Virus record (IMG/VR): IMGVR_UViG_2706794689_000010
Length of the DNA: 24,547 nucleotides
Source of the DNA: a virus
Taxonomy: Duplodnaviria; Heunggongvirae; Uroviricota; Caudoviricetes
Strand: one strand, 5' to 3'
This document shows, one piece after another, positions 6,349-19,770 of this stretch. The notes beneath the pieces were generated by a model. That model ran no database searches and was not told the DNA's origin. It worked only from the letters and a program-made list of their open reading frames with translations. A program made the position numbers and the translations under genes. The stretch's first letter is position 1. Each line of letters starts with the position of its first letter.

Positions 6349-7464
6349 TTAAATCCCTGCTTTTCTGAATACCTGTGCATCACGCTCACGGAGCTGCTTC
6401 AGCGTCAGCCATTCGCCTTTATCGGTGTAAAATTCATCTGGCGACATACCACCATCCCGAATCAGCTTTGCTCGGCTTTCCCCCACAATCTGTTTTTGTC
6501 TGGTGTAAGGCTGACGCAAAAACCATTCCCTGTAGGTTGTATCTCCGGCCACCACGCCATCCATGCTGGCCCGCTCAGCCGGGGAAATATCGCGAACATC
6601 AATACCCAGTTCCTTCGCTGATTTCAGAATGAACGTTTCCGTTGAGCGGCAGCAGAAATGAATTTTTCCCGGCCCCTGCAAATAAGGCACGCTGTGACCT
6701 ACAGGTTTATTATTCAGCGTATATTTGAGGCGATCCCTGATTCGACATTGTGGCGTAGTACGATTATCAAGCGTTGATAACCATTGCTTACCCTTAATCA
6801 AATCATTATTCGCGCTGGCAAAACTCTCACGGGCAGTAGCAGCAAGATGTCCAACCGCTGTTTTTGCAATGCTGGCCGCATTAGCCCGGCTCATCTGCAA
6901 TGCACCATCCTGAAATCCCTTACTGACATGTCCCCGAATTTTTCTTGCGATCTGCTCATTGGTATCCCCCAGCAAAAAACCCTGACGCACTGTATTTGTT
7001 ATGCGTCTGAGCCGATCCGCCTCAAGATCTGAGGCCCACTCACTGAGCAGTCGTCCCTGGAATGGTCGCGCCATTGCAGCGGCATAAAGTGCATCAGGAG
7101 AGATACCAACCAGAGGGTGAACATCAGCAACAAAATCAGGTAGCATAGAATCAAACAGACTTAACTGATAACCAGCCTCATAAATTGCCAGCTCGTTCAG
7201 CTCTCCGGAGAGACTGGTAAACATGCTGTTAATAGCAGTGCGGTTAACCTCTCTGACGCTCGCCAGAAGTGACTCCAGGCGCTTAACGGTAAAACTACCT
7301 GGATCGAGGCTGTCCAGTGCTATCAGCAGGCGAGCAGTAAGTTCCGCATCGCTGTCATTCAGTATTTTCACCATTCTGGCAGCCACGCCAGTGCTATAGC
7401 GGGATATCCAGACTGCATGAGCAATTGATTCATCACGCAGCCGTTCATTCACGGTTTGCATCAT
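6349..7464 (-). CDS. phage Mu F-like minor head (head morphogenesis) protein
   Basis: 371 aa; contains STLDNRTTPQCRIRDRLKY, typical of the Mu gpF / SPP1 gp7 family; directly follows the portal gene with a 20-nt overlap. Confidence 0.75.
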   Translation of the reverse strand: MMQTVNERLRDESIAHAVWISRYSTGVAARMVKILNDSDAELTARLLIALDSLDPGSFTVKRLESLLASVREVNRTAINSMFTSLSGELNELAIYEAGYQLSLFDSMLPDFVADVHPLVGISPDALYAAAMARPFQGRLLSEWASDLEADRLRRITNTVRQGFLLGDTNEQIARKIRGHVSKGFQDGALQMSRANAASIAKTAVGHLAATARESFASANNDLIKGKQWLSTLDNRTTPQCRIRDRLKYTLNNKPVGHSVPYLQGPGKIHFCCRSTETFILKSAKELGIDVRDISPAERASMDGVVAGDTTYREWFLRQPYTRQKQIVGESRAKLIRDGGMSPDEFYTDKGEWLTLKQLRERDAQVFRKAGI

Positions 7465-8851
7465 TGATTTCCATCAGCATTACACTCTGATTTTTTAATT
7501 CATCGATCACTTCCTCTGGACGGGAATCCTGATCGATAAATTTCAACGCCTGCAACACCCGAACCGCATCAATCTGACGTATATCACCGCCCTGACGCAA
7601 TGACTGAACAGCCAGCGCGGAGGATGAGTCAAACACCTGGGCAGATACATCCAGTTCAGTGCGCACATCCACATTGCCACCGCAACTCTCTCCGATCCAT
7701 TCCGCCATTATCTGGAGAATATTATCGAGGGCATCTTCGAGGGAGTTCGCCATTGTATAAAGCGGCGAGTTTTCCTGCATTCGCTCTTCATTAGTCTGAT
7801 CAACAGATTTGGTGGATGTATTTTCAGCACGCAGAAGTTTAGCGCCGGCATGACGCATCTGATTTTCCAGCTTCTCAAGTGATGTTTCGCCAGATTCTAT
7901 CGCTGCGCCACTATGTTCAACATATTCGAGGCCATTTTTTGTTCTGTCCTCAAAAATCGTAGCGGTGGATGCACCAACCGTCAGTTCTTCATTCCTGTCC
8001 AGCCCGTAGGCCACCAGCAATGGAACGCGGGCAACATGAAGAATATTGTCCTGCTCGCTCTGGCTTTGCCAGTGCTTGATATTCAGCAAGCCAAGATTAA
8101 GCAATGGCGGTGTACCACGCATAAATCCTGTTTTCTTCGTGTACAGTGTTACCAGAGGAATATCATCACGGCTGGTATTCCATGACTCATGAAGCGTCCA
8201 GACAGATTCGCCATTAGTGCCTTCGCTACGTCGATAAATTTCAACTCGACGGGGCATAATATGGCGGATCTGCTCCACCTTCTTCTGCCCGAAATCATCA
8301 CCATCAATAATGATGACCTCTTTTATACGCAAATCAGTGAGAACAACTTTCCCTTTTTCAACTTTCGATTTCCATCCAATAACCTGGCGTGGATTCAGCA
8401 TCGTAACGTACGGACGACCACCGGTCGCGTTTTCATCGGCTTTTGTCCGAATCTCTTTCATATCCGTTCGTGGATAGTCCACCAGCGCATGTGCCACACC
8501 ATACTGAAATGCGAGGCTGAAAAATTGCTGCGCCCACACATCCAGTCGGCTCCCCTCCATGTCGATATTTTCTGCATATTCCCTGATTTTTGCCGGCGTT
8601 TCCTCACTCAATACTGTCGGCTCTGCAAATATGCGCCCAATATTTTGCTTGATGCTTTCTTCATACACAGGAAGTAGCGTAGCCACAGACAGGCGTTTTT
8701 TATAAGCGTCTTCATCTTCGTTAGGCCATTTTGGGAGATAATTTTCCCCCTGCCTGCGCATTTCAAGCGTACCGCCCATCAGTGCGTCGTTAATATCCCA
8801 CGCCTCCAGCATATCGTTATAGTCGAGGTTGGGTGTTGATATATCAGCCAT
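7445..8851 (-). CDS. portal protein
   Basis: 468 aa, acidic; starts 3 nt after the TerL stop; size and position (TerL - portal - MuF) are canonical. Confidence 0.75.
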   Translation of the reverse strand: MADISTPNLDYNDMLEAWDINDALMGGTLEMRRQGENYLPKWPNEDEDAYKKRLSVATLLPVYEESIKQNIGRIFAEPTVLSEETPAKIREYAENIDMEGSRLDVWAQQFFSLAFQYGVAHALVDYPRTDMKEIRTKADENATGGRPYVTMLNPRQVIGWKSKVEKGKVVLTDLRIKEVIIIDGDDFGQKKVEQIRHIMPRRVEIYRRSEGTNGESVWTLHESWNTSRDDIPLVTLYTKKTGFMRGTPPLLNLGLLNIKHWQSQSEQDNILHVARVPLLVAYGLDRNEELTVGASTATIFEDRTKNGLEYVEHSGAAIESGETSLEKLENQMRHAGAKLLRAENTSTKSVDQTNEERMQENSPLYTMANSLEDALDNILQIMAEWIGESCGGNVDVRTELDVSAQVFDSSSALAVQSLRQGGDIRQIDAVRVLQALKFIDQDSRPEEVIDELKNQSVMLMEINDANRE

Positions 8852-13279: not shown

Positions 13280-14632
13280 TTAGGAGCGCCAAAAAAAACC
13301 TGAAAACAATATAATAACAGGATAAATTTCAAGGCGACCAAGAATCATAGCTATGCACATTAAATATTTTGCAATGTCATTAAGCACTCCGAATGACGAT
13401 GCAGTAGCCCCAAAACCTAATCCCATATTATTAATACATGCAGCCACTGTTGCAAATGATGTAAGAAAATCATATCCCATACCATTTAACACCAGTATAA
13501 AAAACACCGTGAAGAGAGTATAAAGAAAAAAGAAACTCCATACAGACCTCATTACACGATCTGTAACTATCTTCCCTCCTACATTTACACTCAACAACGC
13601 TCTGGGATGAGAAAGCTGATTTATCTCGTGTTTGCTTTGTTTGAAAAGTATAAGAAATCGAAGTGACTTAATTCCACCACAGGTTGAACCTATACATCCC
13701 CCAAAGAAACTTGACAACAGCAAAAACACTATCGTGTGCGTGGGCCAGTTTGCATAATCCTGCGTAGCTAAACCATTATCAGTGAGCATGGAGCTGGCAA
13801 GAAAAAACGAATGAATAAAACTTCCATGCAAGTCATACATACCTATATGCCAGACCTGGAAAGAGGTAACAATGATCACCCCTAAGGCTATTAACAGAAA
13901 GAAACGAAGTTCAATATCTCTGATTAAAGGTTTTATCGTTTTTCTGCTAATAACAATATACCAAAGAGTGAAGTTGAAAGCCGATAGCAGGGAAAAAGAA
14001 CCAGCCACCAGCTCAACCAAATAGTTATTAAAATATCCGATACTCTCGCTATGAGTTGAGAAACCACCAAGCGAAACTGTGGAAATCCCGTGACAAATAG
14101 CATCAAACAAAGGCATTCCTGCAAGTCTATAACAGACAATACAAGCAATACCTAATAAAGAATAAGTTATCCACAGTGTCCGTGACGTATCGGCCAGGCG
14201 GGGAGTGAGTTTGTCATCCTTAAATGGCCCCGGCATTTCTGACTGATAAAGCTTTGCACCACCAATACCCAATAATGGCAATACTGCAACCGCCAGAACA
14301 ATAACTCCTAAACCACCTATAAAATTTAACTGTGACCGATAGTACAAATATGCCCGAGGTAATGAACTAACATCATCAATTACAGTTGCTCCTGTTGTTG
14401 TTATTCCAGAAACCCCTTCAAACAGAGCATCAATGAACGTTAAATTAAGTTCTGAGTCAATCCATAAAGGGAATGCACTAATAACAGAAAACAAAATCCA
14501 AAACATTACAATTATAATAAACCCATCACGGGTACGTAATTGAATGCCAGATTTCTTAGTTGTATACCACGCTCCGCCACCAATGCAAAAAAATATAACG
14601 AAAGTTATAAAGAAAACGAACAGGCTTTTTTC
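13280..14632 (-). CDS. trkG: Trk-system K+ uptake protein TrkG/TrkH family (N-terminus in N block 14633-14885)
   Basis: Polytopic membrane protein with repeated pore-loop glycine motifs (SGITTTGATV, GGLGVIVLAVAVLPLLGIGGAKLYQSEMPGP, GGFSTH, FGGCIGSTCGGIKSLRFLILFKQ) typical of TrkH/TrkG; A/T-rich codon usage; sits directly downstream of Rz/Rz1 as trkG does in Rac. Confidence 0.8.
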   Translation of the reverse strand, partial: EKSLFVFFITFVIFFCIGGGAWYTTKKSGIQLRTRDGFIIIVMFWILFSVISAFPLWIDSELNLTFIDALFEGVSGITTTGATVIDDVSSLPRAYLYYRSQLNFIGGLGVIVLAVAVLPLLGIGGAKLYQSEMPGPFKDDKLTPRLADTSRTLWITYSLLGIACIVCYRLAGMPLFDAICHGISTVSLGGFSTHSESIGYFNNYLVELVAGSFSLLSAFNFTLWYIVISRKTIKPLIRDIELRFFLLIALGVIIVTSFQVWHIGMYDLHGSFIHSFFLASSMLTDNGLATQDYANWPTHTIVFLLLSSFFGGCIGSTCGGIKSLRFLILFKQSKHEINQLSHPRALLSVNVGGKIVTDRVMRSVWSFFFLYTLFTVFFILVLNGMGYDFLTSFATVAACINNMGLGFGATASSFGVLNDIAKYLMCIAMILGRLEIYPVIILFSGFFWRS

Positions 14633-14886
14633 NNNNNNNNNNNNNNNNNNNNNNNNNNNNNNNNNNNNNNNNNNNNNNNNNNNNNNNNNNNNNNNNNNNN
14701 NNNNNNNNNNNNNNNNNNNNNNNNNNNNNNNNNNNNNNNNNNNNNNNNNNNNNNNNNNNNNNNNNNNNNNNNNNNNNNNNNNNNNNNNNNNNNNNNNNNN
14801 NNNNNNNNNNNNNNNNNNNNNNNNNNNNNNNNNNNNNNNNNNNNNNNNNNNNNNNNNNNNNNNNNNNNNNNNNNNNNNNNNNNNNT

Positions 14887-15351: not shown

Positions 15352-15845
15352 TGCTGACCCCACAAACAGATTTCACGCTCAATCTCACGACGAGTCATGA
15401 GACCTTTCCATTGCTTACCGCCAGCATATGTCCAGCGACGTAGCTGATCACATGCGCCTTTGATATCGCCCTGGTTTATTTTGCGAAGAAGCGTCGATGT
15501 TCTGAAATTACCAGCACCCACGTTGTAAACGAACGAGTAAAGAGCGCCGCGCGTTGTTTCCGGTATATCGACTTTGATGTACGGGTTAATTTGTCTGGCG
15601 ACAGTGGCAAGGTCTTTATTCAAGAGTGTTTTGCATTCTGCTTTGGTATACGTTTTACCGAGCATGATGTCTTTTCCTGTATGCCCGTGACATACAGTCC
15701 ATACACCAACAATATCTTTGTATGGTATGTAGCTGACACCTTCCAGACCATCGTTACCACTTGGGCCAGTGATTAACACTGATGCTATAGCAATTGCTCC
15801 GCCACCAATAGCAGCAGCAACGACTTTTCGTAATGATGGAGGCAT
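15348..15845 (-). CDS. R: SAR endolysin (phage 21 R-type lysozyme)
   Basis: [44 protein letters not shown]...: Gly/Ala-rich N-terminal signal-arrest-release segment followed by a lysozyme domain; start overlaps holin stop. Confidence 0.9.
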
Positions 15846-16060
15846 TATTCACCTCTCGCAGCCTTGCGCTTATCTTCTTTAATCTTGAAATAAAGGTTTG
15901 TCAGGTACGTCAGCAGGCCAAATACCAGACTACCCAGCACACCGATTGCAGCCCACTGTGACGGAGTTACTCTATCGAGCAACTGTAAAAACCAGTAGCC
16001 AGCACTGCCTGCGGAGGTGCCGTAGGCAATGCCTGTTGAAATTTTGTCCATGGATTTCAT
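15845..16060 (-). CDS. S: class II holin / pinholin (phage 21 S-type) with dual-start motif MKSM
   Basis: 71 aa [71 protein letters not shown]; two TM segments; GGAGG RBS; the track's longer N-terminal extension has no RBS. Confidence 0.9.
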
Positions 16061-16311: not shown

Positions 16312-16551
16312 CTAACCTCGCATGTCAAAGCCAGATTTCTGAAAATCTCTGTAGACTTCCGGATTGTTGAAGGCCGGAAATTTGGCTTTATGAGCTGCGG
16401 ACTTTATCGCTTCGCAATAGGCTTTATCACCGTTACTGGTAGATATTTTTAACGCCGTGCCATCCTGAGAGAATTCCATATGCAACCTGCATTTTTTCCC
16501 TTTCCAGTTATGCGGCTCATCAAGTTTGGCATTAATTGCAGCTCTGATTCC
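16312..16551 (-). CDS. TolA C-terminal (domain III)-like protein, second copy; N-terminus hidden in N block
   Basis: Visible C-terminal 79 aa GIRAAINAKLDEPHNWKGKKCRLHMEFSQDGTALKISTSNGDKAYCEAIKSAAHKAKFPAFNNPEVYRDFQ align with the TolA domain III pattern (GK.C.L......G.L......GD...C.A...A..KA..P....VY..F). Confidence 0.55.
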   Translation of the reverse strand, partial: GIRAAINAKLDEPHNWKGKKCRLHMEFSQDGTALKISTSNGDKAYCEAIKSAAHKAKFPAFNNPEVYRDFQKSGFDMRG

Positions 16552-16804
16552 NNNNNNNNNNNNNNNNNNNNNNNNNNNNNNNNNNNNNNNNNNNNNNNNN
16601 NNNNNNNNNNNNNNNNNNNNNNNNNNNNNNNNNNNNNNNNNNNNNNNNNNNNNNNNNNNNNNNNNNNNNNNNNNNNNNNNNNNNNNNNNNNNNNNNNNNN
16701 NNNNNNNNNNNNNNNNNNNNNNNNNNNNNNNNNNNNNNNNNNNNNNNNNNNNNNNNNNNNNNNNNNNNNNNNNNNNNNNNNNNNNNNNNNNNNNNNNNNN
16801 NNNN

Positions 16805-17212
16805 CCCATTTTGAAATACTTTATATACTTCCGGCGAAGGGGGGGCAGGTATATCAGCATTCTTTATCGCATTCATCGCTTCACGACATAAATCGAGGTC
16901 TCCACTTTCTCTTTTAACCTCCAGTAGAAGGCCATTCGGGGCCATATGCATTCTCAGTGTACACTCTTTTCCTGAATACTTACTCGCATCCCCGAACTGT
17001 TTTTCGATGGCGCTCTTGATTTGATGGGCATACAGACGGATATCCTCACTAACATCAGAAGTACGTTCAGATGAACTCACATACTGTGTCTCTATTGCTT
17101 TATCGGAGTAATATGATGTACGGTCATGATAATTTGTCGATACAGCATCAGTGCACCCGATAATAATCCCACTAATAATCAACGTAAGAATTGATGCGCT
17201 ACGAAAACCCAT
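16805..17212 (-). CDS. lipoprotein with TolA C-terminal (domain III)-like domain; C-terminus hidden in N block
   Basis: Signal peptide and lipobox MGFRSASILTLIISGIIIGC; then LYAHQIKSAIEKQFGDASKYSGKECTLRMHMAPNGLLLEVKRESGDLDLCREAMNAIKNADIPAPPSPEVYKVFQNG, which matches the remembered E. coli TolA C-terminus (YAGQIKSAIESKFYDASSYAGKTCTLRIKLAPDGMLLDIKPEGGDPALCQAALAAAKLAKIPKPPSQAVYEVFKN); GAGGAAAA RBS. Confidence 0.65.
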
Positions 17213-17241
17213 TTTTCCTCACATATGTCATATAGTAAAGG

Positions 17242-17271
17242 ATTATATATACCGTTGTTTTGGACGCTCAA
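17242..17271 (-). promoter_or_regulatory. candidate sigma70 promoter for the TolA-domain genes
   Basis: On the minus strand TTGAGC (plus 17266-17271), 18-bp spacer, TATAAT (plus 17242-17247), about 30 nt upstream of the ATG at 17212. Confidence 0.3.
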
Positions 17272-17801
17272 ACAGCGAATCAGATCAAATAAAACGCACA
17301 TTTGTTAACATTTACACAAAGTCTGCGTGGGATATTCTGAAAGAATATCCATAATGTGGAGAGAATCTATTGAAGTGCATGGTGCCGGGTGCCTCCCGGT
17401 GAACAAAATGTTCGTGATACCTGTCGGCGACAGAAAAGGTTAATGGTATCACCCCACCGCACAGGGGGATTCACCATGCAGGAGTTTTCTTAGCAAACTC
17501 ACTGCGCGCCCGGCAACTCCCAACCACATAAAATGCGGAGTTTGTGGCATTTATGCATATAACTCGCAGGAATTATCTTAAAAAACTGATGTCGATCCGG
17601 ATTAAAAAGAAGCAGGTCATCATCAGATGACTGGAAAAAAGGAAAACAAAAAATACTCATCATACAGTTTTGATTGCAGGGATGAGCCTGCTATGCACAA
17701 TATGCAGAATATAAGCAAGATAAAAATATGCAGGCATATTATTTCGGATCTTGTTATTAACACAACCTTTTTAATAATCATTTGGCATACAATAAACCAG
17801 C

Positions 17802-17829
17802 CCAAAAAGAACCGCCTAAACAGGCGGTT
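17802..17829 (-). terminator. rho-independent terminator inside the Q-S intergenic region
   Basis: Stem aaccgcc/ggcggtt (17810-17816 / 17823-17829) with 6-nt loop; cuuuuu follows on the minus-strand transcript only. Confidence 0.4.
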
Positions 17830-18149
17830 GGTCAATACAAAGGATGCTTCGTCTTTATTATAGTAATCTGAGGCGTCGGGTGTCTTGTATCAGACAACAT
17901 ATTGTCCCGCTAAACAGCGAATTACAAACCACCCTGCAATGATCTCTCATCTCATTTTATATGAGTTGACGACATCAGGATAACGCATCATCAGCCCCTG
18001 CCAAGAAATATCAAAACTCCCGCCAGCAATGTGTTATCACAATATTGTAAAAAAAACACAGCACCGAAACTATAACTGGTCTCTGTTATAATTTGGAGCA
18101 GAAAGACCAGTTGCCCAACTAGCAGCATTCTCCCCTGCTTTCCTGACGT

Positions 18150-18177
18150 AAAAAAACCGCATTAAGCGGTTTTTTTA
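18150..18177. terminator. bidirectional rho-independent terminator (tR'-like) about 80 nt downstream of the Q-like gene
   Basis: aaaaaa-accgc-attaa-gcggt-tttttt: perfect hairpin flanked by an A-run and a T-run. Confidence 0.6.
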
Positions 18178-18968: not shown

Positions 18969-19770
18969 CGCACGTCCCCGCCAGCCTGNNNNNNNNNNNN
19001 NNNNNNNNNNNNNNNNNNNNNNNNNNNNNNNNNNNNNNNNNNNNNNNNNNNNNNNNNNNNNNNNNNNNNNNNNNNNNNNNNNNNNNNNNNNNNNNNNNNN
19101 NNNNNNNNNNNNNNNNNNNNNNNNNNNNNNNNNNNNNNNNNNNNNNNNNNNNNNNNNNNNNNNNNNNNNNNNNNNNNNNNNNNNNNNNNNNNNNNNNNNN
19201 NNNNNNNNNNNNNNNNNNNNNNNNNNNNNNNNNNNNNNNNNNNNNNNNNNNNNNNNNNNNNNNNNNNNNNNNNNNNNNNNNAACGAAACCAGACAGCAGT
19301 TCTCGTTCGCGAGGCGTGNNNNNNNNNNNNNNNNNNNNNNNNNNNNNNNNNNNNNNNNNNNNNNNNNNNNNNNNNNNNNNNNNNNNNNNNNNNNNNNNNN
19401 NNNNNNNNNNNNNNNNNNNNNNNNNNNNNNNNNNNNNNNNNNNNNNNNNNNNNNNNNNNNNNNNNNNNNNNNNNNNNNNNNNNNNNNNNNNNNNNNNNNN
19501 NNNNNNNNNNNNNNNNNNNNNNNNNNNNNNNNNNNNNNNNNNNNNNNNNNNNNNNNNNNNNNNNNNNNNNNGTAAAGCCCCACATAGCATGAACAAACAC
19601 TACATATCAAATAGCTGGTACAAGGATAGAAATACGACACTTATTATTAAAAACGATTAGATAAATTACATTTTAATGTTATGCAAAAGTTCTTTTTTAT
19701 CATAACATTTCAATAAAAGCATTACAGATGCAATCATCCCGTCATCATCAATTATTTAAGGTGGTTAAAC

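Follow-up and report, generated by a model that had tools for sequence, protein, structure and literature searches.

The 24,547-nucleotide (nt) stretch of DNA analysed here, the window, is the IMG/VR record IMGVR_UViG_2706794689_000010 of a tailed phage (Caudoviricetes), and on its minus strand two consecutive genes, gene 1 and gene 2, lie between a gene in the Q position and the holin gene. We found that the products of both genes are true TolA domain III folds. By their predicted architecture both are small secreted lipoproteins, with a lipid-anchored cysteine, a disordered tether and a single TolA domain III fold carrying its disulphide pair. The reading that we prefer, at a rough probability of 0.45 and on sequence grounds, is that these lipid-anchored TolA domain III heads would serve as decoys giving tolerance to colicins and Ff phages.

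An earlier note on this DNA had proposed two consecutive genes with TolA domain III-like products, and profile, sequence and structure comparisons all gave significant matches. Against the Pfam family of the TolA C-terminal domain (PF06519, gathering score 25), gene 1 scores 80 bits (E = 1.5e-22) and gene 2 scores 54 bits (E = 1.9e-14). A phmmer search of all PDB chains returned solely TolA domain III entries, with E = 5e-28 for gene 1 and E = 5e-9 for gene 2. Residues 55–142 of gene 1 align without a gap to residues 334–421 of E. coli TolA at 59% identity, and the terminal LDFKP is common to both. Gene 2 shares the fold at about 32% identity to TolA domain III, and the two products are only about 28–30% identical to each other.

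AlphaFold2 models were built from alignments of 90–97 sequences. In both models the confidence (predicted local distance difference test, pLDDT) exceeds 95 across the domain and falls below 60 in the N-terminal 45–50 residues. Comparison with TolA domain III structures in Foldseek, which the earlier note had suggested as a check, gave a template modelling (TM) score of 0.96 and a root-mean-square deviation (rmsd) of 0.6 Å for gene 1 against 2x9a_B, and a TM score of 0.93 and an rmsd of 1.0 Å for gene 2 against 3qdp. Both models have the alpha-beta-beta-alpha-alpha-beta topology and superpose on the solved TolA domain III, while C-terminal domains of the TonB family appear in Foldseek as distant matches only. 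In the BFVD library of viral structures the gene 2 model has no significant match. The disulphide pair of TolA, C363/C388, corresponds to C84/C109 in gene 1 and to C73/C98 in gene 2, and these columns are invariant or nearly so in the alignments used for modelling.

Part of the pair is masked in the window, and the sequence was read through the mask from the locus NZ_CP033250 (L001), which is 100% identical at the unmasked bases of the 1.4-kb query; megablast finds many complete E. coli genomes that are 100% identical at all unmasked bases of the two-gene stretch. With the mask filled in this way both genes are complete open reading frames (ORFs), of 142 amino acids (gene 1) and 131 amino acids (gene 2), so that the recovery of the masked sequence called for by the earlier note has been achieved. 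The mask covers the last six codons (VLDFKP) and the stop of gene 1, a spacer of 150 nt and the first 52 codons of gene 2, including its ribosome-binding site, GTG start, signal peptide, lipobox VAGC and Cys-rich tether. It should be noted that five masked intervals of the window, of 250–293 N (for example, 16552–16804 and 18989–19281), correspond to 241–454 nt in L001. Since the length of a mask is not the true length, ORFs that read through masks are artefacts, and we rejected any estimate of gene length from masks, which measure about 250–290 N whatever the true length.

Gene 1 begins with the signal peptide MGFRSASILTLIISGIIIGC followed by T, that is, with the lipobox IIGC, Cys20 and Thr at +2, as the earlier note had read it, and continues with a disordered tether (about residues 21–48) and the TolA domain III fold (55–142). 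Beyond what had been noted before, the second protein is also a lipoprotein by its sequence, with VAGC hidden in the masked start: its signal peptide is MGLKKIVMLTFWVGFVAGC followed by T, again with Thr at +2, and its GTG start is preceded by AGGAG. Both lipoboxes fit the pattern [LVI][ASTVI][GAS]C, and the lipobox cysteine is retained in all variants (IVGC, TTGC, TAGC, VAGC and ITGC). In both proteins about 25–35 residues separate the lipidated cysteine from the domain and are predicted to be disordered (pLDDT 43–58).

Lipoproteins with Thr at +2 are sorted to the outer membrane in a Lol-dependent manner, Asp at +2 being the Lol-avoidance signal. Since both proteins have Thr at this position and Asp at +2 occurs in none of the family members listed, outer-membrane sorting is predicted for both.

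The gene 2 family has two features of its own. The motif C-x-PLHPxxCHKxTAxxSC (residues 19–36, L001 6922–6975) lies right behind the lipidated cysteine and is not present in gene 1 or TolA; its cysteines probably form a second disulphide, perhaps as a small loop in the tether. The other feature is an invariant C-terminal stretch, KAKFPAFNNPEVYRDFQKSGFDMRG, unlike that of TolA.

In RefSeq, gene 1 is labelled as a tolA pseudogene ("incomplete, missing N-terminus"; L001 6457–6717) and gene 2 is started at an internal ATG (L001 6889–7263). Judged from the sequences, we consider both the label and the start to be annotation artefacts. The ATG start of gene 2 was rejected, as it gives MLTFWVGFVAGC, which is devoid of a charged n-region; the GTG 21 nt upstream of it has AGGAG before it and fits the MG[LV]KKIV start of gene 2 homologues.

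Neither protein is a TolA, because domain I (the N-terminal transmembrane segment that couples TolA to TolQ and TolR) and domain II (the long Ala/Lys/Glu-rich helix that spans the periplasm), for which K-12 TolA served as the comparison, are absent from both. There is no hydrophobic segment beyond the signal peptide in either protein. Both genes lie in a prophage late region and not in the ybgC-tolQRA-tolB-pal-cpoB cluster. The TolA equivalog profiles of NCBIfam match only over their last 80–100 or so positions: for NF007065 (cut-off 213) the scores are 107.8 and 53.7 bits, both below the cut-off, and for TIGR02794 (cut-off 59.45) gene 2 stays below at 47.2, while gene 1 rises above at 75.6 solely through profile positions 265–362 of 362.

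Group A colicins and filamentous phages share TolA domain III as their point of entry, and the domain has a central part in the stability of the outer membrane. Its ligand sites have been mapped: the N1 domain of the filamentous-phage gene 3 protein (g3p), colicin N (ColN) and the TolB N-terminus bind the first helix (334–349) and strand beta3 (415–420), and with D418P or K420P killing by ColN is lost and a tol phenotype appears (PMC4339652, PMC7391070). The colicin A (ColA) site is on the opposite edge and comprises beta2 (L375–P380), K368, L392 and K396 (PMC3365938). Both are sites of strand addition (PMC4339652, PMC7391070, PMC3365938).

At these surfaces the two proteins are not equivalent by alignment. 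In the first helix gene 1 keeps 11 of the 16 TolA residues, and gene 2 keeps 4 of 9 aligned residues. Strand beta3 and the C-terminus read APLDFKP in TolA, GVLDFKP in gene 1 and SGFDMRG in gene 2. The elements of the ColA site (K368, L375–P380, L392, K396) are K, LLDIKP, L and K in TolA; H, LLEVKR, M and K in gene 1; and E, ALKIST, K and H in gene 2. On these residues, gene 1 is a close mimic of E. coli TolA domain III, with the TolB/g3p/ColN site kept and the ColA site mostly kept, and gene 2 is a protein in which the fold and the strand-forming C-terminus are kept and the side chains have diverged at every mapped ligand surface.

Both genes are under purifying selection. Over the 88 codons shared with host tolA, gene 1 is 59% identical in protein and in nucleotide sequence, with a proportion of synonymous differences (pS) of 0.72 and a ratio of nonsynonymous to synonymous substitution (dN/dS) of about 0.17. 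Because synonymous sites are saturated, the divergence from tolA is old, and recent capture of the host gene, which we considered as an origin, was rejected on the same pS and nucleotide identity. Among gene 1 variants 91% and 66% identical to it, dN/dS is 0.09–0.34 in the domain and 0.4–0.8 in the signal peptide and tether, as expected of a folded head on a floppy linker. For gene 2, dN/dS is 0.11, 0.08 and 0.08 in comparison with the plasmid, Enterobacter and Serratia homologues, respectively, at synonymous divergences (dS) of 0.5–1.05.

The pair is common and well preserved. Among 5,426 complete E. coli genomes, gene 1 occurs in 888 (782 at at least 99% identity) and gene 2 in 1,269, with 784 records at at least 99% identity and about 515 at 80–90%, the latter number being close to the count of plasmid-borne places (525); the pair as such is present in about 14% of the genomes. 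In IMG/VR, the gene 2 protein is 100% identical in all 80 prophage contigs, 79 of which carry gene 1 upstream of it, intact in 78.

Beyond what the earlier note had described, the gene 2 family is not specific to phages. It comprises 370 clusters at 78–89% identity in Citrobacter, Enterobacter, Serratia, Klebsiella, Raoultella and Shigella, and about 600 E. coli and Shigella plasmids carry a homologue. I-complex conjugative plasmids (IncI1/B/O, IncK2/Z; loci L002, L022 and L023) have in their backbone a homologue 88% identical to gene 2, which directly follows nikA-nikB on the same strand, 68 nt past the relaxase gene nikB. On pO157, an IncF plasmid (L013), the homologue is located between psiA/hok and toxB. 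On the Serratia marcescens chromosome (L008–L011, about 6950–8740) it adjoins a pair of genes of GmrSD type and with a HEPN domain, and may be part of a defence island.

A third type of TolA C-terminal protein, of 144 amino acids and 33–35% identical to genes 1 and 2, occurs on about 300 plasmids, mainly of Klebsiella but also of Enterobacter and others. At one locus, on the Klebsiella pneumoniae IncF plasmid pMR0617ctx (L014 4217–5246), its gene directly follows a gene for a thioredoxin-fold protein, which hints at a dedicated disulphide partner. In a HMMER search of 1.84 billion cluster representatives, short TolA C-terminal proteins of 120–150 amino acids are many, and the presence of a lipobox in 51 of the 74 full-length ones indicates that a lipoprotein with a TolA domain III head is a widespread architecture.

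According to the decoy reading, the TolA domain III heads would dangle on their tethers of about 25–30 residues from the inner face of the outer membrane, under the porins and beside TolB-Pal, which is where the translocation domains of colicins emerge through porins and where g3p arrives. The heads would offer the strand-addition surfaces of real TolA while being uncoupled from the TolQR motor and transmitting no force. Ligands that need energised TolA would be captured unproductively and not imported. ColN and ColA would be caught by direct binding, E-type colicins by way of the TolB N-terminus, and filamentous phages by the N1 domain of g3p. A cell contains 400–800 copies of TolA (PMC8928145), and with so few copies modest expression of a decoy would outnumber it.

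The lysogen would then be tolerant to Tol-dependent bacteriocins and to phages of the Ff/If1 type, possibly with a mild tol-like envelope phenotype. Gene 1 would be the faithful mimic of E. coli TolA, and gene 2 an older and widely mobile paralogue whose surfaces have changed and whose range of ligands is probably different. Expression in the lysogen is assumed to start at a promoter upstream of gene 1 and to end at the terminator before the holin gene; on induction, Q-dependent late transcription would read through. Free TolA domain III exported to the periplasm of wild-type cells has reportedly been found to give tolerance to colicins E1, E2, E3 and A together with periplasmic leakage (Levengood-Freyermuth et al. 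1993, J Bacteriol 175:222).

The presence of these genes in prophage slots with different Q and lysis modules, on conjugative plasmids, on pO157 and next to GmrSD/HEPN genes is a distribution typical of accessory protective genes. The pili of I-complex plasmids are the receptors for the TolA-dependent phage If1. That a gene 2 homologue lies in the nikAB transfer operon would fit protection from phages of the If1 type, which is a speculation; the g3p of If1 binds TolA (title of PDB entry 2x9a). A broader claim, which we put forward tentatively and with the odds against it, is that short outer-membrane copies of the TolA tip are a widespread class of "import-hub decoys" on prophages, I-complex and IncF plasmids and Enterobacterales chromosomes, giving broad tolerance to Tol-dependent bacteriocins and pilus phages and, on conjugative plasmids, protecting the piliated donor from phages that exploit the pilus.

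Several points weigh against the decoy reading. For gene 2 the argument rests mainly on backbone strand addition, because the side chains of all mapped ligand sites are lost. The affinity of TolA for TolB is weak, at 40–200 µM (PMC7391070, PMC4339652), and damage to the envelope is to be expected from a decoy that binds TolB. The outer-membrane location of both lipoproteins is a prediction from a sorting rule, and neither protein has a match in PADLOC. In Enterobacter the gene 2 homologue is a single chromosomal gene amid metabolic genes, which fits a housekeeping role in the envelope too. Finally, the 2.4-kb region with the promoter-like site before gene 1 (10/12 consensus) is AT-rich and has 11 such sites, compared with 6.0 ± 2.3 in shuffled sequences.

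The Enterobacter genes lead to the alternative that survives best, although we regard it as unlikely: the heads would bind the TolB N-terminus (or CpoB or Pal) and tune Pal mobilisation, outer-membrane tethering or vesicle formation, with tolerance as a side effect. Gene 1 retains the beta3/helix site used by TolB, and the gene 2 homologues, strongly conserved across genera, are in Enterobacter stable single genes in non-mobile contexts. Altered TolB-TolA or TolB-Pal interactions could regulate vesicle production (PMC7391070). Recurrence in prophage cargo slots, on conjugative plasmids and beside defence genes, however, is better explained by a function in conflict.

It is rather improbable that the TolA fold has become the scaffold for a different periplasmic ligand in a lipoprotein family of its own, an idea that applies to gene 2 especially. 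The family-specific Cys motif and the C-terminal stretch of gene 2 would agree with it, as would the many 120–150-residue proteins and their lipobox frequency. Gene 1, however, is too close to E. coli TolA domain III exactly at the ligand surfaces, and the gene neighbourhood suggests no alternative ligand.

The features of the locus itself are collected in Table 1. On the minus strand the order is the DUF1133 gene, about 1 kb of non-coding DNA, gene 1, the mask, gene 2, a hairpin with a T-run, essD, rrrD, Rz and trkG; the genes thus occupy the Q-to-holin cargo slot to which the earlier note had assigned them. Genes of the type found in the Q position match PF06576. The Q role of the gene in the window is inferred from position, since its sole similarity in PDB, the top match to phage 21 Q, is non-significant (E = 0.27). 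No tRNA genes were found within the window. The trkG gene is another cargo gene of the prophage late region.

Table 1. Features of the two-gene locus and its flanks (positions in the window; L001 positions refer to NZ_CP033250)
Feature	Position	Strand	Basis and remarks
Q-position gene, DUF1133 family, 180 amino acids	18257..18799	-	ORF; RefSeq name in identical relatives; upstream edge of the slot
Hairpin/promoter-like features downstream of the Q-like gene	~18149-18176 and ~17810-17886 (L001 5325-5352, 5615-5691)	-	sequence
STnc100-family prophage small RNA element	17323..17509 (L001 5992-6178)	-	Rfam RF02076, 86.6 bits (gathering score 47)
Sigma-70 promoter-like site TTGAGC-18-TATAAT	17242..17271	-	10/12 consensus; ends 30 nt upstream of the gene 1 ATG
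Gene 1, readable part (residues 1-136 of 142)	16805..17212	-	ATG at 17212; GAGGA before the start
Masked stretch, 253 N	16552..16804	.	true length 327 nt in identical relatives
Gene 2, readable part (residues 53-131 of 131)	16312..16551	-	stop at 16312
Intrinsic terminator, 7-bp stem, 4-nt loop	16160..16186 (L001 7389-7406 + tail)	-	AGCTCGC-TACG-GCGAGCT, then TTTTTAT
Holin gene essD	15845..16060	-	downstream edge of the slot; then rrrD lysozyme, Rz, trkG
trkG, potassium transporter gene	13280-14740	-	directly after Rz, as in K-12 Rac

The whole window matches a full-length prophage of the Rac family, such as that of E. coli NCTC10444, with the order of unnamed helix-turn-helix regulators, ydaT/ydaU/ydaV, DUF1133, gene 1, gene 2, essD, rrrD, Rz, trkG, ynaK, terminase, P22-type capsid, ydaY and tape measure. 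The Rac prophage of K-12 is collinear with it except for a deletion of 9.1 kb that fuses ydaW to rzpR and takes away the Q-like gene, STnc100, both TolA-like genes, the holin gene and the lysozyme gene (in MG1655 at NC_000913.3 ~1423200, L104 4201/4202, compared with L015 3553–12677). A second deletion in K-12 Rac has removed head genes.

The slot is variable among related phages. In the GenBank phage set the sole isolated phage with the pair is mEp460_ev081, which shares with L001 one block of 1.7 kb (the STnc100 element, gene 1, gene 2, the terminator and the holin gene); its Q gene is different, and no DNA similarity was detectable beyond the block. Variants of gene 1 without gene 2 are found in the same slot of other lambdoid prophages with a lambda-type Q, some of them after tRNA genes and before nanS-p, DUF826 and the holin gene, which is the place of stx in Stx phages. 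What other lambdoid prophages carry in this slot includes gene 1 alone with STnc100 copies and PmrD-like, nanS-p or DUF826 genes. The gene 1 family is found in this slot alone.

The earlier note had described a moron with a promoter and a terminator of its own, and part of this description stands. Between related phages (Rac-type prophages and mEp460 compared with other lambdoid prophages) the insert is present, absent or replaced, and a terminator of its own, convincing by sequence, separates the genes from the lysis genes: its stem has 5 GC pairs and is followed by a T-rich tail between gene 2 and the holin gene. The base composition, however, is like that of the neighbours (GC content 42% in gene 1, 46% in gene 2 and 46.5% in the locus), and the proposed sigma-70 promoter is a candidate known from its consensus match in a region where such sites are common. 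Its upper coordinate, 17271, is that of the segment described in the earlier note. In the 91% variant of gene 1 the −35 element of this site is conserved and the −10 element is TGTAAT; in the 66% variant the upstream region is unrelated.

The match to STnc100 ends about 110 nt upstream of gene 1, just upstream of the promoter-like site. This element is the left edge of the block shared with mEp460, and its position relative to gene 1 is kept in the loci of the 91% variant. STnc100 is a prophage-encoded small RNA related to PasD (2026 preprint). In prophages with the 91% variant, the Q-to-holin slot contains three or four STnc100 copies (four in L019 and L021, three in L020), and the repeated copies flank cargo genes like module junctions.

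A hairpin followed by a T-run lies about 80 nt past the stop of the Q-like gene, and further on comes an AAGACA-18-TATAAT site with a second terminator-like hairpin within about 30 nt. From their sequences, this site and the hairpins are candidates for the late promoter and terminator. Transcription of gene 1 may start at a promoter of its own, come by read-through from STnc100 or depend solely on the Q-dependent late promoter.

The genes are part of the late operon and immediately precede the lysis cassette, which raises the question of a helper in lysis, in which late Q-dependent expression would flood the periplasm with TolA domain III heads, uncouple Tol-Pal and loosen the outer membrane. 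The genes move with the holin gene as one block between Rac-type prophages and mEp460, and the confinement of the gene 1 family to the slot would also suit such a role. We nevertheless hold it to be quite improbable, given the good intrinsic terminator before the holin gene, the promoter-like site before the genes, the location of the closest gene 2 relatives, which on plasmids and chromosomes have no lysis genes around them, and the use of the slot as the classical place of cargo of benefit to the lysogen, such as stx. That the genes are decaying, functionless fragments of a captured tolA, as the RefSeq flag of an incomplete tolA for gene 1 would have it, can be practically dismissed and was rejected as contradicted by the data on selection and intactness: each is a complete ORF that has a ribosome-binding site, a start and a lipoprotein signal peptide of its own, and dN/dS lies well below 1, with the synonymous sites of gene 1 saturated in comparison with tolA, as in an old maintained gene. 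About 780 genomes carry the genes at an identity of at least 99%, and in the viral contigs 78 of 79 copies of gene 1 and 80 of 80 copies of gene 2 are intact.

Returning to the decoy reading, we can compare the proteins with known systems. They share the fold and the disulphide pair with E. coli TolA domain III (PDB 1TOL, 1S62, 3QDP/3QDR and 2X9A; PF06519), and differ from TolA in having, where TolA has domains I and II, a signal peptide of the lipoprotein type and a short disordered tether, and in that the genes are in a prophage and not in the tol-pal operon; lacking the transmembrane domain I, they have no TolQR coupling. The periplasm-exported TolA domain III of Levengood-Freyermuth, Click and Webster was likewise an uncoupled head in a tolA+ cell, and it reportedly gave tolerance to group A colicins together with leakiness, the dominant-negative behaviour that the decoy reading supposes. 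That head was a soluble, over-produced laboratory construct, whereas genes 1 and 2 are natural, diverged and selected genes on mobile elements, with products that are lipid-anchored by prediction.

Llp of T5 and Cor of phi80, N15 and HK022 are likewise small lipoproteins encoded by phages; from the inner side of the outer membrane they keep incoming phages and colicins from using a host import route. These two plug the receptor FhuA, whereas the proteins described here would imitate a periplasmic co-receptor and soak up the invader; no matches pointing to a relation to Llp or Cor were found in Pfam, PHROG or PADLOC. In cells infected with filamentous phage, intracellular g3p occupies TolA, which results in colicin tolerance and exclusion. 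The interaction between TolA domain III and its ligand is the same in that case, but there the ligand saturates the hub, whereas the proteins described here would, as copies of the hub, saturate the ligand; they are unrelated to g3p. With the late cargo of lambdoid phages (stx, bor and lom morons) the pair has in common the logic of a replaceable Q-to-lysis insert with its own terminator and a candidate promoter; the products are unrelated.

The homology itself is already visible in the RefSeq name [quoted passage not shown]. In the literature searched by concept, name and accession we found no publication on these proteins, in agreement with their uncharacterised status in the earlier note, and the apparent leads were irrelevant (chromosomal tolA on a microarray, a bare RAST label and the author name Morona); in PHROGs both are placed only in phrog_5772 ("unknown function"), and PADLOC has no entry for them. 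As a mechanism, a lipid-anchored protein that imitates the import hub in the periplasm would be a new variation on the lipoproteins of exclusion and tolerance.

Since the pair is lost in the 9.1-kb Rac deletion and K-12 is the usual indicator strain, K-12 is a clean background for its expression. If the decoy reading is true, differences between strains in sensitivity to colicins and to Ff/If1 phages could be explained, as could variation in vesicle production and part of the fitness gain from Rac-type prophages, pO157 or I-complex plasmids. This would be relevant to therapeutics that are based on bacteriocins or phages and rely on the Tol route, and it would amount to a new principle of exclusion, in which a periplasmic co-receptor is mimicked rather than a surface receptor blocked.

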